Positions 1-44,035 of a DNA stretch of 64,000 nucleotides are shown one piece after another. Source of the stretch: Terriglobales bacterium (GTDB lineage: Bacteria > Acidobacteriota > Terriglobia > Terriglobales > Acidobacteriaceae); the NCBI GenBank assembly GCA_050014475.1, contig JBEKDG010000008.1, forward strand, positions 18,636-82,635. The letters are read 5' to 3'. Under the pieces are notes generated by a model. It was given only the letters and a program-made list of their open reading frames with translations. It was not told where the DNA came from and did not search any database. The position numbers were made by a program, and so were the translations under genes. Numbering within the stretch: position 1 is the first letter of the stretch; the number at the start of each line of letters is the position of its first letter.

Positions 1-164
1 TGTCTGTGAATCATGCTAATACAAGGGAGTGAGTTTTATTGATTTTCTCCGATCACGAGAATCGGATGTCAATACTTTTGCCGACGCCCGACAGGGTGAC
101 GTCTCGCCGCACTAAACCTGAATCCGGCACCTGGTCGGCAGGGCAAGGCGCAGCCGCGTGTTTT

Positions 165-1169
165 TCACAACGAATCCAGCCAGTCCAGTACGTCGGCGTT
201 CCTCTTCCAGCGCGGAGCGGCATGGGGCCGTAGTGCGCCATCGGCTTTCTCGATTGCCTTTCGTTTTGTCTCCAGGTTGGCTTGGGCGTAGATGTTGGTC
301 GTGTCCAGGCTGACATGCCCCATCCAGTTCTGAACGATGGCGGCGTCGACACCCGAGGCAATGAGGTGAACTGCAGCCGTGTGCCTCAGCGTGTGGGGCG
401 ACACGCGCTTGTCAGCCAGACGGGGAGCTTTTTCTGTGGCGGCTTGGACGTATCGCTTCAGGCGGAATCGCACACCGGAAGCCCCGAGCGGATTCCCGTA
501 ACGGTTACGGAACACCGCCTCATCGGGGCCGGTTGGGTGTCGCTTCAAGAATGTGTCCAGAAGTTCCGCTGTTTCCGGCCACAAAGGGCAGATGCGCTCC
601 TTACGTCCTTTGCCATACACACGCACCTGCGACGGAGGATGCAAACGAATGTCGCGCGGGTGAAGCTGGAGAGCTTCCGAGATGCGCGCCCCGGTGTTAT
701 AGAGGAGTGCGAGTAAGACGCGGTCGCGCTCGCCCAGCTTGCTCTTCCGATCCGGCTGATCCATCAGCGCCAACAGTTCATCTGACTCCAGGTAGACGGC
801 GGTTCGTTTCGGAGCACGCTTGTTAGGAATGCGAAGAATAGCCGCGCACTGCTTGGCGGCAAGCGGGTCTCGATCCGCAAGGAATGCGAAGAAGCTGTGG
901 AGAGCAGCCAGCCTACAGTTTCTGGTGGCGATGGTCTTCCCACGGACCTTTTCTAGATCATCGAGAAAGGCCAGCACTTCCTTGTCGTACAGATCAGCCA
1001 AAGCGAGCCGCGCAACGTCCCGGTGGCGACGCTCCGCCACGAAGCGCAGAAACAGCCGCCAAGTGTCACGATAAGAAAGGATGGTGTGGTGTGAGGCGTT
1101 CCGTTGGCCGGCCATCCAGTTATGGAAGTAAGAATGCAACAGATCGGGGAGCGAGTCAGCTATTTTCAT
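165..1169 (-). CDS. tyrosine recombinase, third gene of a recombinase trio (RitC-like position)
   Basis: 334-aa ORF. Catalytic signature is visible (GARISEAL Arg, HTLRHTAA HxxR, GHVSLDTTNIYA Tyr). Its start overlaps the upstream recombinase stop by 14 nt. Confidence 0.9.
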   Translation of the reverse strand: MKIADSLPDLLHSYFHNWMAGQRNASHHTILSYRDTWRLFLRFVAERRHRDVARLALADLYDKEVLAFLDDLEKVRGKTIATRNCRLAALHSFFAFLADRDPLAAKQCAAILRIPNKRAPKRTAVYLESDELLALMDQPDRKSKLGERDRVLLALLYNTGARISEALQLHPRDIRLHPPSQVRVYGKGRKERICPLWPETAELLDTFLKRHPTGPDEAVFRNRYGNPLGASGVRFRLKRYVQAATEKAPRLADKRVSPHTLRHTAAVHLIASGVDAAIVQNWMGHVSLDTTNIYAQANLETKRKAIEKADGALRPHAAPRWKRNADVLDWLDSL

Positions 1170-2526
1170 AAGGGGTTTCCCGGGCCTTCACGAGGTGCGC
1201 ACCGAAGGCTCGAAACCGCTCGCTTGCGCGCTGCAGCAGTTCCTGGGTGACCGTGATGTACACGACGGTGGAGTGCAGGCCGCGATGACCAAGGTAGGTC
1301 CAGAGGTAAGGCAGCTTGGCCTGCACGTCGACGCCTTCCCGGTACCACGCGATCATTCGATTTACGACAAAGCTGTGGCGAAGATCGTGGATCCGGGGGC
1401 CGCGCCGCCCCGGATCTGGTTTAAGGCCTGCCTTGCGCATTATCTGGCGCATCAGGTGGTTGGCGGTAGTGTAAGAGTATCCGCCCTTCCGGTGCCAGAA
1501 TAGAGGACTGTGGGGATCTGTCGGTGCGAGGGCTTGGCGTCGGGCCAACATGTAGTTGCGAATGGCTGCCATAGCACTCTCGCTCAGCGGCAACCGGCGG
1601 GACTTGAAGAACTTCGTATCCCGAATGTCGATGGCGTTGTCGTCCTCTCGAATGTCACCCAGGCGAAGCCCGACAATCTCCCCCATCCGGAGTCCGGCAC
1701 AGTAAGCCAGAACGAACATCGTGTACAGAGACAGCGCCCGCACGGGGGCTTTGGGAGAGGGATAGTTTCGCGCGGTTTCGAGCAGGCGCTGGACCTCTTC
1801 CTGGGTAAAGATGTACGGTCTCTTTCTCTGGCGGAGAACTTCACGAACGATCATGCGGTCGCGCTTGACCGATGCGGTAGCCGGATTGGTGCGTTGGAGG
1901 GATCTGGCAATGGCACGCCCCACCTTCACGCGTTCCATATGAGTTGCGGGCGAAGGTGCAAGCTTCGCGTACTCTTCCACCAGGGAGGAAAGTGATTCGC
2001 TCTCGGCACTGGGTCGGCGCTGAACGAACTTATCGAAGTGCCGGAATCGATTCTCGTCATAACGGAGCCCAAGAGTCTTCATACGTTCCACATGCGCCTG
2101 GATGACGGGTCCAAGATGACTCCCGAAGCGAGGAAGGCCACGAAGGCTCTCCAGGGCTGAGTCCGGGTCAGGGCTTACCAACGCGCGAACAACCGCAGCG
2201 GTGGACTGGCGTCGGCAGCCGCGACGGAGATCGGCGAAGGGATTTACCGCGAGGTAGCCACTGGCAACAAGCCAATCGAGAAAGCAGCTGACGGTCTGTG
2301 CTCGTCGGACAGCCATGCCCAGCGGCGACTGTTTCACACACTCTCGCAGCCAGGCTTGTAAGGTCCTGCTGTCCAATGCCCCCTCAGGAGCGTGATCCGT
2401 CACGAATGTTTGAAAGCGGCGAAGCACGGATTCGTACGGCTTCCCGGCACATGCTCCCCTGAGATCCAGGTCGGCCACATATCGTCGAAGCAGAGCCCTT
2501 TCTCGATCAGGCCAAGCCTTAGTCAT
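1156..2526 (-). CDS. tyrosine recombinase, second gene of trio (RitB-like position)
   Basis: 456-aa ORF. Motifs AGLRMGEI, IHDLRHSF (HxxR) and LGHRGLHSTVVYI are present. ATG overlaps the stop of the upstream gene (ATGACTAA, 8 nt). Confidence 0.9.
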   Translation of the reverse strand: MTKAWPDRERALLRRYVADLDLRGACAGKPYESVLRRFQTFVTDHAPEGALDSRTLQAWLRECVKQSPLGMAVRRAQTVSCFLDWLVASGYLAVNPFADLRRGCRRQSTAAVVRALVSPDPDSALESLRGLPRFGSHLGPVIQAHVERMKTLGLRYDENRFRHFDKFVQRRPSAESESLSSLVEEYAKLAPSPATHMERVKVGRAIARSLQRTNPATASVKRDRMIVREVLRQRKRPYIFTQEEVQRLLETARNYPSPKAPVRALSLYTMFVLAYCAGLRMGEIVGLRLGDIREDDNAIDIRDTKFFKSRRLPLSESAMAAIRNYMLARRQALAPTDPHSPLFWHRKGGYSYTTANHLMRQIMRKAGLKPDPGRRGPRIHDLRHSFVVNRMIAWYREGVDVQAKLPYLWTYLGHRGLHSTVVYITVTQELLQRASERFRAFGAHLVKARETPYENS

Positions 2527-4723
2527 TCCTCCACCCCGGCACCGGCAACGCCACCGAGCGCAAGTCCTCGGTTGCCAGCTTCAGATACACCTGCGTAGAA
2601 GCAGCCGAGCGGTGGCCCAATACGTCACCGATCGACTTCAGCGGAACACTCGCCCGCAAGAGGCTTACTGCTCGTGCGTAGCGGATGGCGTGTGGACCGC
2701 GCCTGCCTTCCGTCTTGATACCGGCCTGCCGGATTCGGCGGCCCAACACCGTGTAGAGACTGGAGCCACCGGCAAAGGGACCGTGAGGTGCTCTAGCCTT
2801 GATGAACACTTCTCGCAGATGTGTTTGTGGCCGGCCCCGGCGGAGATAATTAAGGATGGCTTGGCCGACTTCCGCCATGAGCGGCAAAAGCAGGTCGGCG
2901 CCCGTCTTAGACTGTTTTACCTTTATCTGTTCGCAGCGCCAGTTGATGTCTTCGAGCTTCATGCGGACGACCTCGCCGGCGCGAAGTCCGTACTTGGCTA
3001 CGAGTAACAGCATGGCGTGGTCGCGCAATCCAATCGGCGTCTGATCGTAACGAGTGACGGCTTGCAATCTCTTGACCTGTTCATCGGTGAATGCCAACGG
3101 AATGTCTTCATGCCGATAGAGGATCGGGCCGCTTACGGCGACTGCGAGATCTCGTTCAATCAACCCGTCCGCATAGAGGAAGCGCAGGAAGCTGCGCAGA
3201 CAGCTGGCCACTCCATGCCTGGTCACTCGCCTCAACCCCTGGTTCCGCCAAACAAGGAAGGCATCAATGTCCGACACAGCCAGTCGACGCATCGTATTCG
3301 GGCCGGCACGGTCTCCCAGCCACTCGAGGAACACTTTTGCAGCGTGCCCATTCTTCCGCAGCGTCTCCGCGGAGAATCCGTGGAGTTCCGTCAACCAGCG
3401 CCCGTAGCTCGTGCATATCTGACGGCGGAATGCTTCGATTTCATCTTGGACTGGTCTTTCAGGCGGCCACTGCCCACGGACCAGCCGCAGGTAGCGTCGG
3501 ATCGGGCTCGTCTGGTGGTAGTGCCATAGAGCGACGTTTCGAGGATGCTGTTCGTGGTTGCGCCGGCACTCGGCAAGCCGCAATTCCACGTAGGACGCGA
3601 CGTGTTCGGGCGTCACCTCTTCAACCGGAATCGACCGGCTTCGTAAGAAGCGCAGGAACACCCGGACGGTCGACATCATGCTGGGGATCACGGAAGCGCG
3701 AAACCGCTGTTCGGCGAGGTATTGCCGAAAGCGCTCCAGCGAGGGATCGGGTCGGCTGTCTGCCGGCCAATAACCGTGGACCAACCGCAATAGGCGGCTG
3801 ACCGGAGATACAACAGTGGCTTTCCAACTCCGCATGTACCGCGGAAATCTGCCGTGGCGCTTCTGATAGGCCGCCAGCTTCGTTTGAACGAAGCTGGTCA
3901 CGTGGGCAGCTTGCACTTTTTCCAGAGAGATACCCTGCGTCTCTAAGTGTCTTAGGAACTCAATGCAGCGGCGAAGATATACCCCACGCCTCTTTGGACA
4001 CGAGAAAGCATGCTCCAGATGTTTCTTCAGCCGCTCCAGCCAGGGCTGCACTGGACGTGCCGGTGGCCATTCTCCTTGCACAAGTCGCAGCAAGTAGTGA
4101 ATGCCGGGTGTCAGTCCACATCGCCAGTCTACGACGCTCCCCGGAAGCCGACCTTGCTCGCGCTGGTAAAGAACCAGTTCGCGATCAATGAATGCCGATA
4201 CGTCAGCCGGTGCCGCAACCTCCGGTGGTACAGACCTATCGCCAAGGAAGAAAAGAAAGCGGCGTACGACCTGAAGGTAGCGCTGTCTAGTTCTAGGCTT
4301 TTGCCCCGCCTGTTCGAGGCGCGCCCGAAACCACTCCAGGCGCGTTTCGATCTCATTCGAGGGAGGCCACTGCCCTTGCGCCAGGCGTAGCAGCAGGGTG
4401 ATCGGCGACATGTGATGCCAGTGCCAGCCGCGCTGATTCTTTGGGCACCGTCCGTGTTTCCACCGATAGTGGCGCAACCTTACACGAAGAAATGCGTCGA
4501 CATCCGCTGCTCGTACCGATTCGACCGGAATCTGGCGGCGCTCCAGGTAGCGCAGGAACTTCCGTCCGACTACGCAGTAGCTTTTGGTTGCAGGACGGCT
4601 GTAATGCTCACGGGCTAAGTGTTCCTTCAGTTGCGGCAACCATCTGTCAAGGCATGAGGTGTGCTGTGAAATGGTGTTTGCTCCCCGTACTGGTATACGC
4701 AGAAACAGGCCGATTGGACTCAA
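2519..4723 (-). CDS. large tyrosine recombinase, first gene of trio (RitA-like position), with repeated N-terminal modules
   Basis: 734-aa ORF; TTG start as drawn, exact start uncertain. C-terminal GLRAGEV, PHAIRYARA and LGHRSAASTQVYL motifs. Four tandem 100-aa N-terminal repeats precede a canonical core-binding-like segment. Confidence 0.85.
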   Translation of the reverse strand: MSPIGLFLRIPVRGANTISQHTSCLDRWLPQLKEHLAREHYSRPATKSYCVVGRKFLRYLERRQIPVESVRAADVDAFLRVRLRHYRWKHGRCPKNQRGWHWHHMSPITLLLRLAQGQWPPSNEIETRLEWFRARLEQAGQKPRTRQRYLQVVRRFLFFLGDRSVPPEVAAPADVSAFIDRELVLYQREQGRLPGSVVDWRCGLTPGIHYLLRLVQGEWPPARPVQPWLERLKKHLEHAFSCPKRRGVYLRRCIEFLRHLETQGISLEKVQAAHVTSFVQTKLAAYQKRHGRFPRYMRSWKATVVSPVSRLLRLVHGYWPADSRPDPSLERFRQYLAEQRFRASVIPSMMSTVRVFLRFLRSRSIPVEEVTPEHVASYVELRLAECRRNHEQHPRNVALWHYHQTSPIRRYLRLVRGQWPPERPVQDEIEAFRRQICTSYGRWLTELHGFSAETLRKNGHAAKVFLEWLGDRAGPNTMRRLAVSDIDAFLVWRNQGLRRVTRHGVASCLRSFLRFLYADGLIERDLAVAVSGPILYRHEDIPLAFTDEQVKRLQAVTRYDQTPIGLRDHAMLLLVAKYGLRAGEVVRMKLEDINWRCEQIKVKQSKTGADLLLPLMAEVGQAILNYLRRGRPQTHLREVFIKARAPHGPFAGGSSLYTVLGRRIRQAGIKTEGRRGPHAIRYARAVSLLRASVPLKSIGDVLGHRSAASTQVYLKLATEDLRSVALPVPGWRND

Positions 4724-4805
4724 TTATCGGAAGGAATATTTTTGAACAGCCACGCCGAGCGTAGCTTCCGCTGCTTTCCTCCGCATATTCGGTTGCTGCG
4801 CATAA

Positions 4806-4837
4806 TATCGCTAATCGCGAGCTCGCGATTAGCGATA
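4806..4837. repeat. perfect 32-bp palindrome TATCGCTAATCGCGAG|CTCGCGATTAGCGATA
   Basis: Read directly from the sequence: 12-bp arms around an 8-bp centre CGAGCTCG. It lies between the trio start and the truncated DUF932 gene and contains the DUF932 stop codon. Confidence 0.95.
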
Positions 4838-5146
4838 ACCACAAGTCATCGCCAAACGCATGCTCTTATCGTGGGAGTTGCGAAGGCCGATGGAAAAGCG
4901 GCAGCCTTCCATCTCGGTTTCGAGGTCGAGAACCCCAAAGGCTTTCATGCCGTCTGGTGAGACCGCATACTCATCATGCACGACTCCGATGTGGCGAAAC
5001 CCGAGAGTCTCGACCAATGCTTGCACGATCTCGTGGTGCGGGACCGGACGGTGTGTTTCCGTTGCCACTGGTGTCGGCACCAGTGCTAGTTCTTCGCGAC
5101 CAATCGTTCGGCCATTGTAGCCAATGAGCGTACTAGTTTCTGACAT
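4829..5146 (-). pseudogene. DUF932-family (phage/plasmid-like) protein, N-terminal fragment of about 105 aa
   Basis: ATG at 5146 is preceded by AAGGAGGAAAG. The sequence LVPTPVATETHRPVPHHEIVQALVETL...RNSHDKSMRLAMTCGYR resembles the N-terminal third of DUF932 proteins and stops abruptly inside the palindrome, where homologs continue (VxVCxN). Confidence 0.65.
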
Positions 5147-5316
5147 ACTACTTTCCTCCTTGTTGATTTGGAATGACGTTCTTGAAGGTGAGAGAATGGC
5201 GGCGACGCTGGCCGCAGCCACGTTTGCCGGTATGGTTTACGGACTTCGGAGAGAGGACTGCTCAGCGAGGTTGCGCACCGGGCCTGCGAGTTCGTCCAGC
5301 CGTCGCTTACGTCAGG

Positions 5317-7652
5317 TCAACTGAAACCAAACAACGACGCTTGCTCCGGGACGGCTGGCCTCCCGCGCCGCTTCCTGCCTGACAATGATTCAGGCCGACG
5401 TCCGAAAACGAAGATAGAACCGGGATCGATAACCCCTTCAAAAAGACCAGCGGTGTCAGACTGAGTGTTCAGCGGTATGTTCGCCGTTTCGGTGGAAGCA
5501 GCATCATCGCTGCAAACAGACTTTGTCGGGAACAGTTTTTGATGTTCTGCATTCAGGGCCCTCCAAGTGGAATCGGCGGTCTCGCCAATACCGTTCCTCT
5601 CGACCAGTTCCCGTGCCATGGCTGAAAGCATGTCATCGTCTTCATCGATGCTCTGCAATCCCTCGCCGGCGAACTTGCCTTCCATGGTGAGTGCCACGAG
5701 GAGCTTCTTCCCCATCAAGCGGAGGCAGGAAGTCTGCATGGTCCCCTCAGAGCAAAGAAATTTCACACGTACCGGCCGTCGTTGACCGATCCTCCAAGAC
5801 CTGCGGCTCGCCTGCCGCAAAGTGTGTAGTGAATACCCCGACTCGTAGAAGAGAATCGTCGGGAAGTCCAGCAAATCCAGCCCAGTCTCCACCAGCTTGG
5901 GATGGCAGATCACTACTTGAACTCCGTTTTTATTTGTCTGGCGTACCACGCTTCACGCTTCGAAGTATCGACGCTCGCGCGCAAAACAGCGGTGTGGATT
6001 CCCTCGTTGCTCAGGATTCGTTGAATCCGCGCCGTGACGTCGTGCTTCTGTGTGTACACAGCAAAGACCTGACAGCGGCGACCCTCCACTAATTCTTTCT
6101 TGATCTCTTCGATCAGCCTGCGTTCCTTGGAATAGATACGGTCCTCCGGAAGGTCGCGGGGTTCTGCAATAACGAATCTCACCTTGTGCTTAAGTTCAGG
6201 ATCGAACTCAGTACCGTATAGCGTCCCAATCCCGTATGGGTGATCGGGATACAGCAACAGAGTGTTGAGCATCGTGCTCAGAACCGACCGGTTGCCCCTG
6301 TGAGCTTTCAACGCCTTCCGCATGTCATCTTCGAGCTCGCGGTACGCTTCCTGCATGGGAGCGTCCATCGGCACGCTCAGATAGCTTTCTTCGTATGGCG
6401 GAAGTTCTCCCGAGATGTCCTCGAGAAACAAAAAGGCGCACAGCTGCATCAGGAACTCGCCGAATAGCAGTGGGGAGGCTCCAGGCTTGCGCCGGACCGT
6501 GCTGGTCGTTTTGGCCTTGGAGCAGGCATTGTTGGCGGGTTCCACCTTGGTGATGGTTTCCAGGACGCCGTAATCCTGAATAAAGGAACTGCGCCCGGTA
6601 GTACCCCATTCGTAGCCATGCTCCTTCATCCTTCTCGCTTCGAGACGGAAGAGCGTGTTGAAGAGATCGTCGGCGTAGCCGCCCAGCAGTGTGCCGGTCA
6701 GTCCGACGATCCGGTCGGTGCATGCGGCCAGAGTCCCCAGGGCATTGCCTTGTGCCGTGTCGCCCGCAAGTTGGTGGATTTCGTCGCAAATGGCGTAGTC
6801 GAACCAACCGGGCATATAGCGCCCGATAAATTCCACAGGGGCCATACGGCGGATCTTCTCGGGGTCGGCCTGCCACATCGCGCTGTGCACGCGCCGGCAG
6901 GGCGTTTCTCCGCGGGCCTCAATGGTCTCGGAGATTTTGACCTTTTCGAAGTCGGCGGCGGTCAGCCGGCCATCATCAACGATCACGGGCTTGCCCGTGT
7001 CTGCGTTGACGACGCAGCCCAAGTACGGGCCCGAACGCGGCATGATGAAGGCATGGCGCCAGAAATACCCCAGCTTGGCCCGTTCACGTCCCACGATGAA
7101 CAGTGCCGGTCTCGTACACAACGACATCCAGCGCTCGCGTGAACTCGAAAACTGCTTCCGCAGTCGCATGTCGCTGAGCGTGGTGCGCAAGCCTTCACGC
7201 ACCATCCGGCCGTGCTTGAGCCGCACTTCGTTGACACCGTGCGGTGTGTTCTCGTCGCCGCCGTTCCGCAAATCGTCGATCAAGAACACGCGAATTTCAG
7301 GGACGGTCAGGAATGCTTCACGTGCCCACTTCTCGACCAAGTGTGGAGGGACCATGGCTAAAGCTGTGAATGGATGCCCGTCGCTATGGACATGCATGGC
7401 TCCCAGCGAGATCAGGGTCTTGCCCGTGCCGCATTCGGCTACGACCATGGCAGTTCTGGCGTATTGCCAGCGCTTCACAACACCCATGAGGGCAATCGTC
7501 TGTGCCGGAAACGGCCTTCGCAATAGCGCGTCAATCCGGGGCGAGACCGGATCATTGAACGGATGCAGGGCTGGGTATTCCTGCAGGATGCGCTCTCCAA
7601 GCAACTTGGCATGGGCTCTCATATAGTCATATATCGTCGTAAGTTCGAGCAT
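5317..7652 (-). pseudogene. SF2/SNF2-type helicase interrupted by a frameshift
   Basis: ORFs 5913-7652 and 5317-5949 overlap in different frames and together form one helicase: AECGTGKT Walker A, DEIH box, and C-terminal QASRRSWRIGQ motif VI. The frame switch lies within 5916-5946 around an A5 run. Confidence 0.8.
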
Positions 7653-7730
7653 GGAAATCCTCAGAACGCGGGAAGAGGGACCTGAAGGGAAAAGGATTGA
7701 AAGAGAGAAAGAGACAGGAAAGGACGAGGT

Positions 7731-8393
7731 TCAGTCTTCAGTGGGTAGAAGAGTCTGTTTTAGATCCAAACTTGGCCAATGGATTGGTCCGGTCTCTGGG
7801 GGAAAGCGGATGGTGCTGCTCCACAAGCCGTCACTGAGCCAGGAAAGGAATTGCTCTTTGTTCCCTTTGACGAGTACAGGATTACATCCAAGACCCAGCA
7901 TCGGGACGACGGCTTTGTGCTTTTCGAGTTGGCGCAGAAACCATTCGGCCCAATCAGGAATTCCGGGGATGCCGTGAATGTGGGCCAGCGACGCCCACAC
8001 AAACAAAGCCTCCGAATCGGCCAAGAGGGTTCGATCCGTTCCTGATAATGTGCCGCTGGCGGCAAACTCCTCGGAAACCCCGATGAGATGGCGTAACGGC
8101 TTTTTGCGCCCGGCAAGCTGCAGCGAACCTTTGTAGCACTGGACATTGCGCTCCAGGCATACACGAATCGGTTGTACGCCCGGCCCTTCCACCATGAAAC
8201 GCTCTCCCATGGATATGGCTGCAGAAACGGCCGAGATCTGCGTATCACCGCCGATCGCAGAAATGAAGTGGGCTTTGGCCTGCCGCGGTGGGTCTGGCAA
8301 AACCTCGCCGATGAATCGGTCCAGGCGCAGTCTGATGTTTGTGGTGGTTTTCTCCGTGCTCTTTACGTATGTGACCCAACCCCAGAAAAACAA
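7731..8393 (-). CDS. hypothetical protein upstream of the helicase
   Basis: 220-aa ORF, co-directional with the helicase and 78 nt upstream of it. I recognise no motif and the start is uncertain. Confidence 0.5.
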   Translation of the reverse strand: MFFWGWVTYVKSTEKTTTNIRLRLDRFIGEVLPDPPRQAKAHFISAIGGDTQISAVSAAISMGERFMVEGPGVQPIRVCLERNVQCYKGSLQLAGRKKPLRHLIGVSEEFAASGTLSGTDRTLLADSEALFVWASLAHIHGIPGIPDWAEWFLRQLEKHKAVVPMLGLGCNPVLVKGNKEQFLSWLSDGLWSSTIRFPPETGPIHWPSLDLKQTLLPTED

Positions 8394-8409
8394 GCGAAAT
8401 CAACTCTTC

Positions 8410-9615
8410 GTGTCGGCTGAGGTTCGCGAAGGGAGCCTGGGCATCTCCTCAGTCTTCTTGCGATGTGAGGTTTTGCGCGACTATTTCTATCGTATTCCAC
8501 GAGGCGGCGGTGCGTCCGCTCAATACACCTTCTACGATGTGTTGCGGATTCCGGCTGGCGCTTCTCCCTCTGAAGTTCGCGTTGCGTACAAATTGCGGGC
8601 TTTGGAGCTCGATTCCGCCGGCGCTCCTCACAGCGAGCGTGTTGACTTGGAACGAGCGTTCAACATTTTGGCTCAGCCAGAACTCCGTGCCTGTTATGAC
8701 GCACTCTTGACCGACGCGGATGGCCCCGCGCCCTTTCCCTATGGCGGCTTCGGCTCTCTGCTTGCTGCTGGCGAGCGCTCTCACGATGGCCAGGCTTTCT
8801 TTGCCAACCGCATTTTGGCTTTCCTGCCGGAGCAACGGCAGCGCCAGTTCCATGCCCCGCTGCGCAAATGCGACTTCTACGATGACCGTGCTCTGTACCG
8901 CGATCCTCGCCGCAAGCTGGAGTTTTGGATCGATCACGCCGCCCTGCACATGGTATGGGACTCCAGCTGGAATCGGTGGAAACACCTGCTAGGAGCCAAG
9001 ATGCAGATCAATGCAACGTTTGTACAGAGCGGCAGGTACCAGCATCGCCACGGCAAATGGGAACTCGCATCGCACGAGACGGCGTTGCCCAGCCGGCTGG
9101 AGGTCAAGCTCCCCGCCGATATCCAGCAACAGCTAGAGGCTGCGAGGAGAACCTACCACCGGTTTGGACAGTATTCCACCGCATTGGCTCAGATCCGCCT
9201 GCGCATCGAGTCACAAGCAGTGGAGAAATCGGAACTTGAGAAGATGTGCGCGGCTCTGCGCATTCCCGGCGACTTCGACGTCTCTTTGATAAGTTGGCGT
9301 CCCGATTATGATCGCTTCTTTTATCACCAACTCGCGAACCGTGCTCGTCGGATCTACCTGTTTCGTACCGAATACATTCTTGACCTGGAGAAAGTCGTTG
9401 CTGTCGAAACCCCTCAACTCGGCCATGCAACGTATCTTTTCTCCAAACCCAGGAGCATGGAGGGCTTTCTTGAGATCTATACGAAGGTCACGAAAGACGA
9501 CATCCGTCAGAACCACCGCAATGTGGCTGAAAAGCTAGGATTTCTTGGGCGCGTCATTCACGGTGCGAATCCGAGAGTCTGGCTCAAGGAATTGCGACGA
9601 CGTTCGGGCGAGTAG
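8410..9615 (+). CDS. J-domain-like protein lacking the HPD motif, with a C-terminal region of unknown function
   Basis: The long ORF is 8146-9615, but its 5' part overlaps the divergent gene. In-frame GTG at 8410 or TTG at 8458 are plausible starts. YTFYDVLRIPAGASPSEVRVAYKLRALELD...LERAFNILAQPELRACYDALL resembles DnaJ helices I-III without HPD. Confidence 0.6.
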   Translation: MSAEVREGSLGISSVFLRCEVLRDYFYRIPRGGGASAQYTFYDVLRIPAGASPSEVRVAYKLRALELDSAGAPHSERVDLERAFNILAQPELRACYDALLTDADGPAPFPYGGFGSLLAAGERSHDGQAFFANRILAFLPEQRQRQFHAPLRKCDFYDDRALYRDPRRKLEFWIDHAALHMVWDSSWNRWKHLLGAKMQINATFVQSGRYQHRHGKWELASHETALPSRLEVKLPADIQQQLEAARRTYHRFGQYSTALAQIRLRIESQAVEKSELEKMCAALRIPGDFDVSLISWRPDYDRFFYHQLANRARRIYLFRTEYILDLEKVVAVETPQLGHATYLFSKPRSMEGFLEIYTKVTKDDIRQNHRNVAEKLGFLGRVIHGANPRVWLKELRRRSGE

Positions 9616-9689
9616 CCCATGGTGGGACGACGGCGGTAGCTAGAAGCCGCCGCCGTAGCGCAACACTGTGACTGAACCACAAGATATTG

Positions 9690-11513
9690 TCATTCATGCA
9701 TGTCGTCGAAGAATGTCTTTAGTTCGCGGCAGCGCGAGGGGTGGCGCAGCTTGCGCAGAGCCTTGGCTTCGATCTGGCGAATGCGCTCGCGGGTGACGGC
9801 GAACGCCCGGCCAACCTCCTCCAGCGTGTGCTCCGAACCGTCCTCCAGACCAAAGCGCATCCTCATGATCTTCTCCTCGCGCGGAGTCAGAGTGCGCAGC
9901 ACCTGCCCGGTCTGCTCCTTCAGGTTCACGTTGATGGCAGCCTCGTCCGGTGCGAGCGCAGCGCTGTCTTTGATGAAGTCGCCGAGATGGGAATCCCCCT
10001 CCTCACCAATTGGCGTCTCTAGCGAGAGCGGTACCTGCATGATCTTGCGCACTTTGCGTACCTTGGCTGCGGGAATGTCCAGGCGTTTGGCAATCTCTGA
10101 CGAGGTAGGTTCGCGGCCCAACTCCTGGACCAGTTGCCGCGAGACGCGAATCAGCTTGTTGACGATCTCAATCATGTGCACTGGGAGTCGGATGGTGCGC
10201 GCCTGATCGGCAATGGCTCGGGTGACTGCCTGGCGAATCCACCACGTAGCATAGGTGGAAAACTTGTAGCCTCGGCGATACTCGAACTTGTCCACCGCCT
10301 TCATCAGGCCGACGTTTCCCTCCTGGATCAGATCGAGAAACTGCAATCCGCGGTTGCCATACTTCTTGGCGATGGAAACCACGAGGCGCAGGTTGGCTTC
10401 AATGAGCTCGTGCTTGGCCTGCTCCGCGTCCATCTCGCCCCGGATGATTTCGCGCTGCGTGCGCTGCAACTCCTGGAACCCAACGCCGGCAGCGCTTTCC
10501 AGCCCTTCCAGGTCGGCGTGATGCTGCCGCTGAGTCTTGCTGTACGCCTTCTTGAGTTCTTCGCTGCGCGTGCTCTCAACCTTCTTATCCAGATTGCTGA
10601 TGTGGCGGTCGAGCGAGCGCATAATTTCCATGTTTTTATTCACCCGATCGACCAGGCGGTTGCGCTCGAAATTCGTGAGACCGAGGTTGCGGATGATGAG
10701 CGAAATCCGAACAATCTCGCGGCCCAGCCTGCAGCGGCAGCGAGTGTGTTCGCGTGCTTTCTTTCTTGCCGGGATCGTCTGCAACTGTTCGGCCAGGTGG
10801 CCCGCTCGTTTGTAATGCTTTTGCAACTCGTCGATGCGGCGCGTGACTTCTTCGACGCGGTTCTGCAGGATCTCCTCGGTGATCTCTTCCTCATCGAAGA
10901 CGACAGTTTCCTTGATCGAGCGCACGCCGCGCCTCAAATCCTCGCCAATGGTCAGGACCTGTCGGATCACAACAGGCGAGCGGGAGAGTGCCTTCAACAT
11001 GCGCAGCTGTCCACGCTCGATGCGCTTGGCGATATCCACTTCCCCTTCTCGGGTGAGCAGAGGCACCGCGCCCATCTCGCGCAAGTAGATCCGCACTGGA
11101 TCGTTGGTCTTTTCAAGGGCGCCACCGGTGGGATCGAGTTCGACTTCGCTGCCGCTCTCCACTTCCTTATCAAGCTTTTTTTCGAAGGCCGAGAAAAGAA
11201 GCTTGGGCTGCCCCTCAAGCACATCAATCCCCCGCGTGCCGATGGTAGTGAGCAGGTCGTCCAGATCCTCTGGGGAATGGACGTCGTGCGGAATTAGGTC
11301 ATTCACCTCGTTGTAGGTGAGATAGCCCTTTTCCTTACCTGCATCAACGAGTTTCGTAATGTCGCCAATAGACAAGTGGAATCTCTTCAGCGCCGTCTTG
11401 CCATGGAAGCGAGACTCTGCGGGGAACAAGCAACGGACTACTTCTACCCTCGCCGTTGTAAGACCACGGAAGTGGAATTGATCCGAACCGTAGCGTGAGC
11501 GAAGGCCCGGCAT
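9690..11513 (-). CDS. rpoD: RNA polymerase sigma-70 factor, primary-like
   Basis: Regions 1.1-4 are recognisable ([65 protein letters not shown]). The ORF extends to 11852 but that extension looks spurious. Start is ATG 11513 or TTG 11375. Confidence 0.9.
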
Positions 11514-11805
11514 CAGCCCACATCCGCCGCGGCAAGGGTAGCAAGGTACGGCGGTCTCTTCATGCTGGTTGTTTGCCTTTAACGCACCCCGGAAGTCGCC
11601 GCCGACGCATTTCCGAAAGCCCCACAGCGAAACAAATAGGCCGCGAGTTTCCTGTTGCCAGTCAGTCACGCAGCCCAAACAACTCAGAAAGTTGTCATGT
11701 TGATGATACGCGATCAGCAGCCAAGCTGCTGTGAGAACTCGGTAGTGGTGCAGTTTGAAATCCACAGGGCTAGCGTCAGAGTCCGGCCTGTGGGAAACTG
11801 TCCAC

Positions 11806-11970
11806 ATGGCAAACAAGCGTACAAAAGCCGATAAAGCACAGCGCCAAGCCAATCAACTGGAAAAAAGAGCAGACACCCACCCAGAGCAAACGCCTAAGAA
11901 GCCCAAAGCACGGGAGGACTTCAGCCAAGCCGCTGCCCGGATCGTGAGAGAAGCTACCGAACAAAAGTAA
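11806..11970 (+). CDS. small basic hypothetical protein
   Basis: 54 aa from [14 protein letters not shown]..., divergent from rpoD. Support is the ORF only. Confidence 0.3.
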
Positions 11971-12079
11971 ATTCCATCTGCGGTGATCTCTTAAATAAGC
12001 GTGCGAATTTCTGTCTAAAATCCTCCATGTTCTCGCACAATTTCATAATTGTGACCACTTTTATTGACATGAACAATAC

Positions 12080-12514
12080 TCACCGGCGCCCGCTCCAGAC
12101 GGGGTTGCCTTTCTCGTCTCGGAGCACCACGGTATCGTTCCCCCTCACCACTTCGCGTGCCAGCATGAGGTCGGCTTCACCGTGCTTAACTTTCGAACCC
12201 GTGAGAGAGATCTCGTCTCCCTTGTTGAAGCTCACGCCCATCTCCGCCAGAAAGGACTGCGGGCAGAGGTAGACATCGACGGTGTTGGCACCGCTCTTGA
12301 GGAGCAGGTAGGCAATTTCCTTCTCACTGCCTTTTGGCGGCAGTTTCACCTCCTCGATGGTGCCTTTCAGCTTCGTCTCGGCCTGCAGATCATATTTGGG
12401 AGCGCTTGGCGGTTGCTTGTTTTGCGCAACCAGCGGCAAGGCGCAGAAAAGACATGCCAGAAGAAGAATCTTGCGCAAGCCGAGTGACGCGGTGGGCGTG
12501 ATCCGATCACGCAT
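12080..12514 (-). CDS. secreted hypothetical protein
   Basis: 144-aa ORF with a signal-peptide-like N-terminus (LLLACLFCALPLVAQ). Confidence 0.6.
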   Translation of the reverse strand: MRDRITPTASLGLRKILLLACLFCALPLVAQNKQPPSAPKYDLQAETKLKGTIEEVKLPPKGSEKEIAYLLLKSGANTVDVYLCPQSFLAEMGVSFNKGDEISLTGSKVKHGEADLMLAREVVRGNDTVVLRDEKGNPVWSGRR

Positions 12515-13099
12515 GGCTCCCCTCTTTCGAGGAGCAACCGGGAGGCTCGGTGCGGTGGAGAACCAACATAGAAACTACCGGCTCGCGGTCTCCTCATGTG
12601 CTAAGAATGAAGCCAGCTTTCTCGCCCCAATAGTAACCCTCTTTTCAATACGCGAGATGAATAGTTTCGTGGAGGGACGGGTCGCTCCAGGGATCTGCCC
12701 CTGTTTTCTTGGCGTAGGAGAAACGGGCGCGCCGAAGCGCGCCCTTTAGATGTCTTAGCTCTGCAAAGTTGCTAGGCCGCCGCAGCGAGCGGTTGGATAT
12801 GCCCGAGCTGCGTCAACAGTGGACTATGCCCACAAAGTCAGGAAAGCGGTGGGCCGACATTCTGCACTTCCGGCCAGGATATGCTCTAATTTCGTACCTG
12901 CGGCCGATTGTTACCTTATCTCGCCGCAGGCAGGTTCGGCGGCCTTCAGTGGAAACAAAGAAGTTAAGCGCCCAGGAGGCGGCGAGAATATGGTTTAGCA
13001 GCGGCTGGCCTTTGGTCTTAGTCACGGCGACCCAGCATGGGCATGTTTCGAAGTTTGCTAGTCAGAATCTCGACAATTTCGATTACTCTTTTTTGACGG

Positions 13100-13327
13100 T
13101 CAGGACAGTTCAGATCGATAGAAGTGGCGACGCTCGAAAAGCGGCAGTGGCAGCTCAAAGACCCGCGTTTCACCGATTTCGAAGTCAAATTCCTTCCCAC
13201 ACTCCGGCGCCGGGCAACTCGCCCGAAACTTTGTCTTGCTTTCTCCAAGTTCGGTTTGCTGTCTGACAACAATCCAAGTCCCACATCTGGGACACGTGAC
13301 GCACGAGCACGCAATGCGATCAGCCAT
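13100..13327 (-). CDS. small zinc-ribbon-like protein
   Basis: From MADRIACSCVTCPRCGTW...CPAPECGKEF: two CxxC pairs. The start was chosen inside the 131-aa ORF. Confidence 0.35.
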   Translation of the reverse strand: MADRIACSCVTCPRCGTWIVVRQQTELGESKTKFRASCPAPECGKEFDFEIGETRVFELPLPLFERRHFYRSELS

Positions 13328-13716
13328 TCCAAGATTATATGGCGCTTGGAACAGAGCACCGTGGATGGCACCGGGATCGGGCAAGATTCCGACTTTCTTA
13401 GGCTTGGGGAATTTTGTGGCCGTACGCACTTTGGGTGGTGGACCGTGTGACGTCTTGGGAAGTTCGTAAACGGAAGAGCTAAGACATGCCTCCACAGAGG
13501 GTTGCCAGTGGCGACGGTTCTGCTTCGATCGAGTCGAGGGCCAGCGATTAAGGTCGTTTGACTGAAATCCACTTCCGGTCTAAAAGAACTCCAAACCACG
13601 CGCTCCCAGCCAGCGGCTGTAAGTAACCGGGTCGCCACATCGCGCCGGCAAATCGTGCCACAGGCCTGACGGGCGTCTACCGCGGACGACAAGGATTCCG
13701 CGAGGATGAGGACCCA

Positions 13717-13989
13717 ATGTCAACCCAGCCTACTCCGATCACGCCACGGGGACGCCCACACTCGGTTCGAGAGGCTCCCGTCAGTCCGCAACACGCTGCT
13801 CGCTTCCTCAACATGCACCCCAAGACCGTGCTTCGCAAGGCTCGTGAAGGGTCACTCCCCGCTCATCCGGTTGGGAGAGATCGGAAGCGCTGGCACTTTT
13901 ATCTCTCGGAGCTAGACCATTGGCTTCGTTCTCAGGTAATCTCAAGCAGCCACCCGCGTCGCCAACCCCAAGGAGATTACATTGGCTAA
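13717..13989 (+). CDS. excisionase-family helix-turn-helix DNA-binding protein
   Basis: 90 aa. AARFLNMHPKTVLRKAREGSLPAHPVGRDRKRWHFYLSELDHWL is typical of Xis/MerR-like HTH proteins. It overlaps the integrase start by 8 nt. Confidence 0.75.
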   Translation: MSTQPTPITPRGRPHSVREAPVSPQHAARFLNMHPKTVLRKAREGSLPAHPVGRDRKRWHFYLSELDHWLRSQVISSSHPRRQPQGDYIG

Positions 13990-15151
13990 GCGAACGCGGT
14001 ATCAGTACGGTAGTGTTGAGATCGACAAACGCGTAACAGGACCGGACGTATGGCTCTATCGCTGGTGGGAAACGACTTCGGACGGACTCAGGAAACGAAG
14101 GGGTTTCACCGTCGGAACGGTAGAACAGCACAAGACAGAGGCCCATGCTTTGAAAGCAGCAGAAGGCATGCGGCTGATGATCAACGACGGCATTTCACGC
14201 CGAGAACCGGTTCTCTTCTGTGGCATCCTCGACCGTTTCCTTCTCGATCAGAAACAGGAACAGGAAGCCGAACAAATCACCGACAATACTTTAGCCTCTT
14301 ACCGAAGCATGATTTGCCAACACATCCGACCCAAGTGGGGCGACGCCTACCTGGAAGACGTTCGGCCCGCGTTGGTACAGGACTGGCTCCGCAGGCTCGA
14401 CCTCTCACCCAAGTACAAAGGCCACATTCGGTCCCTGATGTACCGTCTCTTCGACAAGGCGATGCTTTGGGAATTGCTGAACGTGGAACGGAATCCCATG
14501 GACTTGGTCGAAGTGAAGGGCATCAGCAAGCGCAAGAAACGTCCTCGCGTCCTCCAGGTAAAGGATGCTTGGCAAATACTCGACGTGCTGGTTCAGCCCT
14601 ACCGAACCATCGTGCTGATTGCACTGTGCTTCGGTTTGCGGATCAGCGAAATCCTGGGCTTGCGGTGGACGGACTTCGATTTCAAGCGATCGGTGGTTCT
14701 GATCCAACGATCAGCAGTCGGGAAGCGACTCAACAAATTGAAGACGGAGTACTCGCAAGACGAGGTCCCGATCGAGCGGGGCTTCATTCTCGAACTGAAG
14801 AAATGGCAAGCGCTCTGTCTCGACTCCGAAGGACGCTGGCTGTTCCCGAGTCCGGTGACCGGTCGGCCGTATCACGCCGACTCGATTCGTGCCGACTACC
14901 TGGTTCCAACAGGTCTCCAGTTGGGACTTGGCAGGATCGGGTTCCATATGTTCCGCCACACCTACCGTGCATGGCTGGACGAAACCGGAGCACCTGTGGG
15001 CGTACAGCAGAAACTCATGCGACACGCGCACATTTCCACCACAATGGACCAGTACGGCAATGCCTCGACCCTGGCCAAGCGCAAGGCCAATCGGCCAATC
15101 GTGCAACGCCTCTTGAGAAGGCCTGCCAATCAACAGGTCTCCATTCAATAA
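13982..15151 (+). CDS. phage-type tyrosine integrase
   Basis: 389 aa with GLRISEILGLRW, FHMFRHTYRAW (HxxR) and MRHAHISTTMDQYG motifs. It lies adjacent to the 3' end of a tRNA. Confidence 0.92.
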   Translation: MAKRTRYQYGSVEIDKRVTGPDVWLYRWWETTSDGLRKRRGFTVGTVEQHKTEAHALKAAEGMRLMINDGISRREPVLFCGILDRFLLDQKQEQEAEQITDNTLASYRSMICQHIRPKWGDAYLEDVRPALVQDWLRRLDLSPKYKGHIRSLMYRLFDKAMLWELLNVERNPMDLVEVKGISKRKKRPRVLQVKDAWQILDVLVQPYRTIVLIALCFGLRISEILGLRWTDFDFKRSVVLIQRSAVGKRLNKLKTEYSQDEVPIERGFILELKKWQALCLDSEGRWLFPSPVTGRPYHADSIRADYLVPTGLQLGLGRIGFHMFRHTYRAWLDETGAPVGVQQKLMRHAHISTTMDQYGNASTLAKRKANRPIVQRLLRRPANQQVSIQ

Positions 15152-15153
15152 AT

Positions 15154-15180
15154 AAGGGGAACTGTGTGCCAGTTCCCCTT
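15154..15180 (+). terminator. hairpin immediately after the integrase stop
   Basis: AAGGGGAACT-gtgtgcc-AGTTCCCCTT, a perfect 10-bp stem. There is no strong T tract. It is followed by the direct repeat TTGGACAGT x2 (15182-15200). Confidence 0.45.
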
Positions 15181-15240
15181 ATTGGACAGTTTTGGACAGT
15201 CGCTCCAAGTGCCCAATTGCCCGTAACCTTATGATTGCTT

Positions 15241-15317
<77 letters not shown>

Positions 15318-15542
15318 GAAAAATCATAACACAGTGTGGTGAAGCGGGGCCAAACTGACTGGCGCTCCGGTACCGTCCTGGCACTGCTCTGATCAGTAGA
15401 GCAGATCTGATGATTGGTTTCGCACTCCATCCAGTGACTGGTCTTCCTTGTTGGGTCCGCTTGAATTCTTGAGGTCCCATGCGCGTCTTGAATTCTAAGC
15501 GGACCCGCTCCTGGCGCTTCTCCGCCTTGCTTGCACGCTTGA

Positions 15543-16115
15543 TCAGCGGCTCAGCTTCTTGCGCTCGCAGGCATCTACGATCTTCTTGGGATCGATGGCA
15601 TCCCGGTCAATCTGCTCTTCCAGAATTTTTCCGTCTTTGCCGATCAGGAAGTTGACGCGGCGCGCGGCTTTGTATTTGTCAACATAGATTCCGTACTGGC
15701 GGGTGACTTCTCCTCCCCAGTCACTCAGCAGCGGGAAGGTGACGCCGATCTGGTCGGCGAAGGCTTTATTGGCGAAGGGGCTGTCCATGCTCACACCCAG
15801 GACCTGGGTGTCGGCGGCTTCCAGTTGCTTGAGATTCTGCTGGAAGGCCTTCATTTGCGCAGTTCAACCACCGGTGAAGGCAAAGATGTAGAACGCCAGA
15901 ACGACGTTGCTTTTGCCGCGATACTGGCTCAGGGAAACGTCTTTTTCGTCGCTGCCATCGAAGTATTGCAGCTTGAAGTCGGGAGCGACGTCGCCGACTT
16001 TTAGTTTCATGGGTGCAGGCTCGGGCTTGTTGCCCTGAGCTTTGATCTGCGGGCAGACAATCGCAGCTGTGAGCAGCCAGACCCCCAACATTGTCGAAAC
16101 ACACCTTCGCTTCAT
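15543..16115 (-). CDS. secreted AhpE/Bcp-like peroxiredoxin with in-frame TGA (probable selenocysteine) at the peroxidatic position
   Basis: Two same-frame ORFs are joined across TGA 15864-15866, giving ...AFYIFAFTGG-U-TAQMKAFQ... ATG 16115 is preceded by AAGGAG. The N-terminus is signal-peptide-like. The C-terminal part carries VLGVSMDSPF...FPLLSDW, typical of the AhpC/TSA fold. Confidence 0.72.
15816..15849 (-). promoter_or_regulatory. candidate bacterial SECIS hairpin
   Basis: On the mRNA the stem CUUCCAG/CUGGAAG (7 bp plus 2 outer pairs) starts about 17 nt after the UGA. The loop is large (15 nt). Confidence 0.35.
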
Positions 16116-16279
16116 GGGAACTCCTTCGAAAAGATTTCTAAAAGCGTACTCTGCGCCCGGCACACGGTCAAAGCGCAAAATGCTTTCACGAGCAGCAATG
16201 CCGAAGCACTTCTGCGGACTTTGTACAATCACTGCGTACAATGACTTTGTACAATGATTGCTGGCCTCGATCAGACCGG

Positions 16280-18052
<1,773 letters not shown>

Positions 18053-43800: not shown

Positions 43801-44035
43801 TTCGTATCAGGGCATCGCTTTAGCGATACCGTAAGTTCTTCGAAATCGGACGCCCCTTTAGAGTGTGCATGAGAACTCGGTCGTCCCTCCGGGACTCGAA
43901 TCATTTCCTCCACTTTTCCCAGCGCTGAAGCGCTGGGCTAAGCTCGGACGCCCCTCCGGGGCTGGATTCTCGGGCATCTTGTTCCACCGGGTTGCCCGAA
44001 AACGAGTTCTCTCACACACACTTTAGGGGCTGGGC
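43801..44035. repeat. compound repeat: a copy of the 18161-18233 core interrupted by a 160-bp insert
   Basis: The core halves are 43801-43861 and 44022-44035. TTTAG is present on both sides of the insert (43862-44021), and the insert ends are imperfect inverted repeats. Confidence 0.55.

Follow-up and report, generated by a model that had tools for sequence, protein, structure and literature searches.

How is a UGA codon decoded when it falls at the catalytic position of a peroxiredoxin? This question is raised by a locus on the minus strand of contig JBEKDG010000008.1 of a Terriglobales bacterium, within a stretch of 64,000 nucleotides that was analyzed as a whole (the window; all positions follow its numbering). 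At 16115-15543 two open reading frames (ORFs) are separated by a TGA. We find that the two very probably encode one protein, an exported peroxiredoxin of AhpE/BCP-like type in which the peroxidatic residue 84 is a UGA-encoded selenocysteine (Sec).

Two Open Reading Frames Form One Peroxiredoxin Gene

The two ORFs are a single gene. ORF 16241-15864 of the minus strand stops at the TGA (15866-15864). ORF 15854-15543 lies on the same strand and in the same frame, with its ATG start three sense codons (ACT GCG CAA) past that TGA. Translation through both gives ...VVLAFYIFAFTGG*TAQMKAFQQNL..., and the frame that opens at ATG 16115 and closes with the stop at 15545-15543 comprises 190 amino acids, the TGA being codon 84. 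Layout and joined product are as described in an earlier note on this DNA. The gene has the following elements.

15543-16115, minus strand: complete gene for a predicted selenoprotein, the precursor of an AhpE/BCP-like peroxiredoxin having Sec as residue 84; 190 codons plus a TGA stop
16121-16126, minus strand: Shine-Dalgarno-like AAGGAG, 5 nt before ATG 16115, taken directly from the sequence
15864-15866, minus strand: TGA in frame at the peroxidatic position of (I/V)xxxTxxU, predicted to be the codon of Sec84

The AAGGAG had been reported previously with a spacing of 6 nt; the motif stands and the spacing does not. The N terminus is kept in relatives, for which tblastn alignments span residues 1-190. 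The Pfam domain AhpC-TSA (PF00578) covers residues 40-164 and runs continuously over the TGA (E = 4.4e-36; 124 bits, with a cut-off of 26). When the product was compared with solved structures using phmmer, the peroxidatic Cys of both M. tuberculosis AhpE (AFTGIC) and the S. tokodaii peroxiredoxin (AFTQVC) fell in the TGA column. The Pfam span and the alignment to solved AhpE bear out the claim of the earlier note that the TGA takes the place of the catalytic Cys of AhpE/Bcp-type peroxiredoxins.

A screen of the window returned 82 TGA-split ORF pairs in a common frame, and only in the pair at 15543-16115 does a single conserved protein domain extend over both members. The other 81 were rejected as candidates, as they appear to be out-of-frame noise in a GC-rich genome.

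The TGA Codon and the Sequence beyond It Are Conserved

We collected 164 TGA forms: the window itself with two near-identical contigs, 80 species genomes of Terriglobia, which hold the best 80 of 562 relatives confirmed among species-representative genomes, a further 80 contigs from soil metagenomes, and a single distant form. Across the 128-nt segment analyzed, 157 of the 164 are distinct. The TGA is at codon 84 in every one (164/164), at ~62-95% protein identity to the window protein. It is present in all 83 close sequences, including 80/80 species genomes (Terriglobales, Acidobacteriaceae or Terriglobia metagenome-assembled genomes; 72-95% identity). A sister clade known from metagenomes of soil and peat has it at 80/80 loci. 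These loci are 65-89% identical to protein P0006, itself 62% identical to the window protein. Additional distant or independent TGA forms are L092, L176 and L178.

Selection was compared on the two sides of the TGA using 82 coding sequences. The ratio of synonymous to nonsynonymous codon differences is 59630:23054 (2.6:1) upstream and 118157:50167 (2.4:1) downstream. The near equality of these values indicates that the downstream half is under the same purifying selection. TGA also terminates 7 of 20 Pfam-supported ORFs that were checked, the 15543-16115 gene among them. This genome therefore uses TGA as a regular stop codon, which excludes an alternative genetic code and means that the internal TGA must be recoded by its context.

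The immediate surroundings of the UGA are also restricted. The codon ahead of it (15867-15869, minus strand) is GGT in 149 of 155 distinct sequences despite the four-fold degeneracy of Gly, and the base that follows it (15863, minus strand) is A in 145 of the 155. There may be a local context effect here on recoding versus termination.

Two Conserved Hairpins Lie Downstream of the TGA

The RNA beyond the TGA contains two hairpins, which are conserved, show covariation and are linked to the TGA. With nucleotides counted from the T of the TGA, they are as follows.

15818-15846, minus strand: hairpin 1, CUUCCAG / CUGGAAG, a 7-bp stem pairing 21-27 with 43-49
15793-15811, minus strand: hairpin 2, ACACCCAG-GUC-CUGGGUGU, an 8-bp stem pairing 56-63 with 67-74, with a G-U-N triloop

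The stem of hairpin 1 begins 18 nt past the UGA and is lengthened to 8 bp by C28-G42 in 121 of 155 sequences; its loop of 13-15 nt, variable in sequence, begins 24-25 nt past the UGA. The loop of hairpin 2, a triloop of a type recognized by SelB, begins 60 nt past the UGA.

When the codons past the TGA are examined one by one, synonymous variation collapses in two stretches, and these are the two hairpins. The arms of hairpin 1 (TTC CAG ... CTG GAA) are frozen, with Leu encoded by CTG in 81/82 sequences and Glu by GAA in 80/80. Hairpin 2 is a frozen run of nine codons, Gly being GGT in 82/82. Third-position entropy is ~0-0.4 bits in most stem columns, compared with 0.8-1.65 bits in spacer and loop columns. 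Stem third positions 57, 60 and 63 exceed 0.4 bits, and the changes there are all wobble-compatible or compensated. Among the closest 81 sequences the only stem changes are C-to-U wobbles.

The cells of hairpin 1 are paired in 94-97% of cases, all changes being wobbles, and those of hairpin 2 in 99.6%. Two pairs of hairpin 2 covary. Pair 63-67 is GC in 53, AU in 22 and GU in 7 sequences, by way of the synonymous changes CAG to CAA and CTG to TTG; pair 57-73 is CG in 59, UG in 20 and UA in 5. Double changes occupy 27 cells of this hairpin, compared with 9.7 ± 2.2 in shuffled alignments, and none of 500 shuffles reached the observed value. An unbiased screen of column pairs for covariation returned both of these pairs. 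A further signal from that analysis, 16/107, was set aside as the clade signature of K-to-Q and F-to-W replacements, with no neighboring pairs. An extension of hairpin 2 through pair 52-78 was likewise rejected, since the A52 variants (ACC) face C78 (AGC) in a mismatch.

The calculated folding energies are -11.7 kcal/mol for hairpin 1 and -12.6 kcal/mol for hairpin 2 (z = -2.4), and that of the 61-nt element is -26.9 kcal/mol (z = -3.05). The distant TGA forms L092 and L176 retain both hairpins. In four forms that carry Cys at codon 84, hairpin 2 is broken by synonymous changes (GGT to GGC, ACC to ACA, GTG to GTC, CTG to CTC) and hairpin 1 is lost or weakened.

Geometry of the Putative Recoding Signal

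Published rules for the bacterial Sec insertion sequence (bSECIS) specify a loop of 3-9 nt, a stem of 4-16 bp and a minimum free energy <= -7.5 kcal/mol, together with a G in the first two loop positions (N1-G-[G/U]-N-N2) and 16-37 nt from UGA to loop (PMC13188914). No more than one of these rules is broken by each of the two hairpins: hairpin 1 that of loop size (13-15 nt vs 3-9 nt) and hairpin 2 that of spacing (60 nt vs 16-37 nt). The loop of hairpin 2 matches the published loop pattern (PMC13188914). Because both hairpins are conserved and linked to the TGA, we infer that they constitute a non-consensus SECIS.

Which of them would bind SelB? Our preferred candidate is hairpin 2, on the evidence of its sequence and conservation, with hairpin 1 serving as a structured spacer. 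When folded, hairpin 1 would cut the effective distance between the UGA and the loop of hairpin 2 to about 31-33 nt. SelB and Sec-tRNA(Sec) would be recruited by this composite signal within the coding sequence, and the ribosome would insert Sec and not terminate. The apex of hairpin 2, CAGGUCCUG, is presumably similar to that of fdhF, CAGGUCUG. Like the consensus bacterial SECIS of the E. coli fdhF type, the signal is a hairpin structure within the coding sequence downstream of the UGA, and the free energy of hairpin 2 is likewise well under -7.5 kcal/mol. It differs in that the hairpin with the canonical loop is 60 nt away, and hairpin 1, with its loop of 13-15 nt, fills the canonical zone. 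We therefore put forward, as a tentative proposal with somewhat less than an even chance of being correct, a new bipartite class of bacterial SECIS, in which a SelB-binding hairpin 60 nt off is brought into range by an obligatory, conserved spacer hairpin.

A rather less probable arrangement, though one to be taken seriously, is that hairpin 1 is the real SECIS, binding SelB from the canonical position through a large loop, with hairpin 2 as an accessory, such as a hairpin that causes pausing or stabilizes, or a second SelB site. The start of its loop falls within the 16-37 nt rule; with G30 in 139 of 155 sequences and C28-G42 formed in 121 of 155, a G stands at loop position 2; the only SECIS-like hairpin of the distant TGA form L178 is at the same place; and in a form carrying Trp at codon 84 it is hairpin 1 that is destroyed and hairpin 2 that survives. 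Yet its loop exceeds the permitted size and is free in sequence (entropy up to 1.65 bits), and the base after the loop G is A where the pattern calls for G or U. It is hairpin 2 that has the canonical loop, is more strongly conserved, shows the sole true covariation and is specifically broken by the synonymous changes in the Cys forms.

The pair of hairpins, with a canonical loop at 60 nt, is a natural departure from bSECIS geometry that is supported by covariation and makes the SelB distance rule testable. If the bipartite arrangement is correct, current SECIS-based predictors would miss it, and the distance rule for SelB would be relaxed.

The Amino Acid at Position 84

Residue 84 is most likely Sec rather than another residue, judging by comparative sequence evidence. 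The earlier note had proposed a selenoprotein, and this proposal is supported by the position of the TGA, the Cys homologs, the conservation of the TGA, the selection downstream of it and the hairpins, from which we infer Sec insertion itself. The note had regarded a non-conserved hairpin past the TGA as evidence to the contrary; in fact two are kept, and these are lost or weakened in the Cys forms.

A protein search returned dozens of matches of 104-106 amino acids covering only the part after the TGA, as well as full-length matches having C or W at this position. The same codon is TGC in L087 and L177 and TGT in L089 and L090, and Cys is also found at the TGA column in proteins P0007, P0008, P0010, P0034 and P0046. 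The TGA form L176 is nested within an otherwise Cys clade. On some contigs (P0008, P0017) a Cys-form peroxiredoxin is followed by a tandem second copy that ends ...YAFTGG, presumably at a Sec TGA, so that Cys and Sec paralogs adjoin.

The W requires more care. In P0012, P0023, P0115 and the P0006 clade the active-site W is a code-4 translation of TGA. The supposition that the W in JGI proteins always has this origin proved wrong for P0005 (L003-L006), where there is a real TGG. Some metagenome pipelines mistranslate the predicted Sec codon as Trp. Gene calls from short metagenome contigs read TGA as W in P0001-P0003, P0006, P0012, P0015, P0016 and P0121-P0148, and some of these calls overrun the true TGA stop, leaving spurious Trp-bearing 'full-length' selenoproteins in public protein collections.

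A number of observations weigh against a Sec-containing peroxiredoxin. First, one close lineage, L003-L006 (JGI peat metagenomes; e.g., L005:3217-3219; ~70% identity), has a genuine TGG (Trp). The earlier note had named a sense codon other than Cys or Sec in close relatives as a possible refutation; such a codon occurs in this lineage, and the remaining close sequences have TGA (83/83). The Trp lineage has a two-codon deletion that destroys hairpin 1, with hairpin 2 intact, and replacements of otherwise invariant residues (M110T, D111R, F127S, I158N). Because of the deletion and these replacements we regard the Trp copy not as the norm but as probably a decaying or repurposed, neofunctionalized derivative of a Sec form. 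Second, the distant member L178 (L178:467-1021; 46% identity), with TGA at the same codon, has neither hairpin 1 nor hairpin 2. The sole hairpin there is small and weak, its GGC loop lying 23 nt past the UGA, the canonical position. This suggests that SECIS architecture changed within the peroxiredoxin family, and, given the position of the L178 hairpin, hairpin 1 may descend from the original SECIS. Third, all TGA forms have Ile or Val where the PxxxTxxC/U motif has Pro, a residue that one Cys form, P0010, retains. The deviation affects a residue of the motif and not the fold, and the other catalytic residues are present.

The remaining adverse points concern the RNA and the machinery. Double compensatory changes are absent from hairpin 1, and the 81-nt stretch 15870-15790, starting 4 nt upstream of the TGA, is unexceptional compared with shuffled sequences (z = -0.81); the support for an RNA signal is evolutionary, not energetic. 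A rule scan downstream of the TGA found no hairpin satisfying every bSECIS rule, and Rfam scans of the region at gathering and E-value thresholds matched no family, SECIS-like or other, the noise matches ctRNA_pGA1 and v-snoRNA-1 being on the opposite strand. Finally, selA, selB, selC and selD were not found within the 64-kb window by ARAGORN, Rfam or Pfam (on 30 ORFs); the sole tRNA there is tRNA-Met (ARAGORN, Rfam), and the Sec machinery of the source genome is assumed.

Could the UGA be recoded as something other than Sec, either as Cys by a tRNA of the tRNA-ReC or SelC* kind delivered by SelB, or as Trp by near-cognate read-through? SECIS-dependent decoding of UGA as Cys has been described, according to a passage in PMC13582414, and the TGG of one lineage offers some encouragement for Trp. 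Nevertheless we consider this improbable. TGC or TGT would suffice for Cys, and the relatives that use them show decay of the hairpins; the deletion and invariant-residue changes of the Trp lineage suggest loss of function; and replacement of Cys by Sec at the peroxidatic site of peroxiredoxins is established (PMC13188914, PMC1794560).

It is more improbable still that the locus makes two products, an exported peptide of 83 residues and an independent C-terminal protein of 103 amino acids starting at ATG 15854. That ATG is conserved, and a product of 103-105 amino acids appears in many databases, but each half on its own falls short of a whole thioredoxin fold, the Pfam and AhpE alignments being continuous over the junction, and both halves are without an active-site Cys or Sec. 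The Met of ATG 15854 is conserved as an internal residue and occurs in the Cys forms too, and there is no Shine-Dalgarno sequence in the ~20 nt before it (GCC TTC ACC GGT GGT TGA ACT GCG CAA). A pseudogene with a nonsense mutation, or an assembly error, with the TGA as a real stop, would account for the two ORFs or 103-aa fragment given by gene callers and public annotation, but can be dismissed in view of the same TGA in 164 independent assemblies at ~62-95% identity, purifying selection downstream equal to that upstream, and conserved structured RNA past the TGA.

The Predicted Exported Enzyme

Returning to the gene as encoding an exported selenoenzyme, the following elements of the protein are relevant to its location and chemistry.

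16038-16115, minus strand: predicted Sec-type (secretory) signal peptide, residues 1-26, MKRRCVSTMLGVWLLTAAIVCPQIKA with QG following the cleavage site; from heuristics
15873-15875, minus strand: Thr81 of the TxxU motif, invariant in all TGA forms
15657-15659, minus strand: Arg153, the conserved catalytic Arg, invariant in alignment A1 and aligned with the AhpE Arg (...ANRGTFVVD)
15567-15569, minus strand: Cys183 (DACER), invariant in Sec, Cys and Trp forms and found in 82/82 coding sequences; candidate resolving residue

The signal peptide has a K/R-rich n-region, a hydrophobic core of ~17 residues and an I-K-A site of the A-x-A type. With a heuristic based on charge and hydrophobicity, the window protein and 113 of 142 relatives pass; in the failures that were inspected, the script had chosen an upstream Met. 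The n-h-c architecture is common to the relatives even as the sequence diverges, and its conservation despite this drift makes it likely that the protein is exported by the secretory pathway and cleaved by signal peptidase I after Ala26. At the level of heuristic prediction, this agrees with the signal peptide that the earlier note had seen opening at ATG 16115.

The active-site motif is AhpE-like, FY(I/V)FAFTGGU. FAFTGG is near-invariant over 160 related loci, with rare S, D or L at residue 82. After export and removal of the signal peptide, Sec84, activated by Thr81 and Arg153, would reduce peroxides in the periplasm. Cys183 would probably resolve the resulting selenenic acid, and a periplasmic thiol reductant would carry out the re-reduction that follows. 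Formation of a selenenylsulfide with Cys183 as resolving residue is plausible from its sequence conservation, and the invariance of this Cys suggests a 2-Cys-like (Se-S) mechanism.

Relation to Known Peroxiredoxins and Selenoproteins

The closest relatives of solved structure are M. tuberculosis AhpE (Rv2238c; 1XXU/1XVW) and the S. tokodaii peroxiredoxin (2YWN/4G2E), with E = 1e-20 to 3.5e-22. In common with the window protein they have the xAFTGxC motif, a domain of the same length and the conserved Arg. AhpE is a cytoplasmic, 1-Cys enzyme. It has Cys at the peroxidatic position and the conserved Pro, whereas the window protein has a predicted Sec, Ile/Val, an export signal and Cys183.

Sec-containing peroxiredoxins (TxxU) are an established bacterial family, as the earlier note had stated, with 12 genes listed in 2006 and 91 in 2016, and PrxU has been demonstrated experimentally (PMC1794560, PMC5029168, PMC13188914). 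The catalogued examples with which we compared our protein are of the FTFVU and STPGU types, namely PrxU of Eubacterium acidaminophilum (NF040737; FTFVU) and the BCP-type WP_011365628.1 (STPGU). Like the window protein these have the AhpC/TSA fold and TxxU with Sec, a UGA recoded by a SECIS within the coding sequence, and abundant Cys homologs (PMC13188914, PMC1794560, PMC12013277 supplement). The window protein is distinguished by (I/V)FAFTGGU without Pro, the signal peptide, the invariant C-terminal Cys and the atypical SECIS geometry. Its scores lie far under the NCBIfam cut-offs (PrxU, NF040737, 81 bits vs 270; BCP, PRK09437, 80.4 vs 140), and none of the NCBIfam models claims it. A literature search for the motifs AFTGGU and FTGGU gave no match.

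Predicted periplasmic selenoproteins of the DsbA-like, DsbG-like and thiol:disulfide interchange types are likewise redox proteins of thioredoxin fold with predicted export (PMC1794560, PMC13188914). These proteins are oxidoreductases or isomerases with UxxC or CxxU dithiol motifs, unlike the window protein, which is a predicted TxxU peroxidase.

The enzyme class is therefore known. What is new here is a widespread, mis-annotated member with a SECIS geometry off the consensus. In public records the gene appears as a 103-aa fragment, within a 785-member cluster at 90% that includes MBZ5615123.1 and MGA9472694.1; the split by ORF calling of which the earlier note had warned is thus found in public annotation. 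The gene is very common in soil bacteria, with at least 562 relatives in species-level genomes, systematically annotated as a 'peroxiredoxin family protein' of 103-105 amino acids. As a result of this fragment annotation, the predicted full-length, exported selenoenzyme is missing from what is inferred about the proteomes and metabolism of Terriglobia. The gene indicates that many peat and soil acidobacteria invest selenium in periplasmic peroxide defense.

Selenocysteine Use in the Lineage

We take Occallatibacter riparius to be a member of the Acidobacteriaceae. It is listed under Acidobacteriota as a documented user of Sec (PMC12013277), its selenoproteins being FdhA, an AhpD-like protein and a deiodinase-like protein (PMC12013277 and supplement), and Acidobacteria are known to use Sec (PMC1794560). 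TGA is present in both the AhpD-like and the deiodinase-like genes of metagenome contigs that resemble O. riparius in their AhpD-like protein (~76-82% identity). On two Acidobacteriaceae-like soil contigs (L173:279-1612 and L175:345-1653) these selenoprotein genes adjoin, with the contexts CPY-U-LDSH (AhpD-like) and GSYT-U-PPF (deiodinase-like); the JGI translation gives Trp at these TGAs or otherwise reads through them.

Both genes have an ordinary SECIS on the related metagenome contigs. In the deiodinase-like gene it is GGCGGGA-GGU-UCCCGCC, with the loop 17 nt past the UGA, and in the AhpD-like gene the loop is 24 nt past the UGA. The arrangement in the peroxiredoxin gene is therefore unusual even for its phylogenetic neighborhood.

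Genomic Neighborhood

A divergent gene for an AMP-binding acyl-CoA ligase (16241-18052, plus strand) is the conserved upstream neighbor of the peroxiredoxin gene, found in 77 of 80 related genomes. AhpE prefers fatty-acid hydroperoxides. By analogy, the acyl-CoA ligase neighbor may hint at lipid peroxides as substrates. A gene for a redox partner was not recognized among the annotated neighbors (acyl-CoA ligase, ThiG, integrase).

The window also contains several recombinase genes. Three overlapping genes for tyrosine recombinases (334, 456 and 734 amino acids) form a block resembling a 'recombinase-in-trio' at 165-4723 on the minus strand. A fourth integrase, of phage type (13982-15151, plus strand), faces a tRNA-Met gene (15241-15317, minus strand) directly downstream of the peroxiredoxin gene. 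An integrase is on the same side of the peroxiredoxin gene in 23 of 80 related genomes, and tRNA-Met consequently appears to be a hot spot for integration; in 1-15400, an att repeat for a tRNA-Met/integrase element was not found. At 43918-43963 on the plus strand there is an Acido-Lenti-1 small RNA (Rfam RF01687, 56 bits), consistent with an acidobacterial origin of the DNA.

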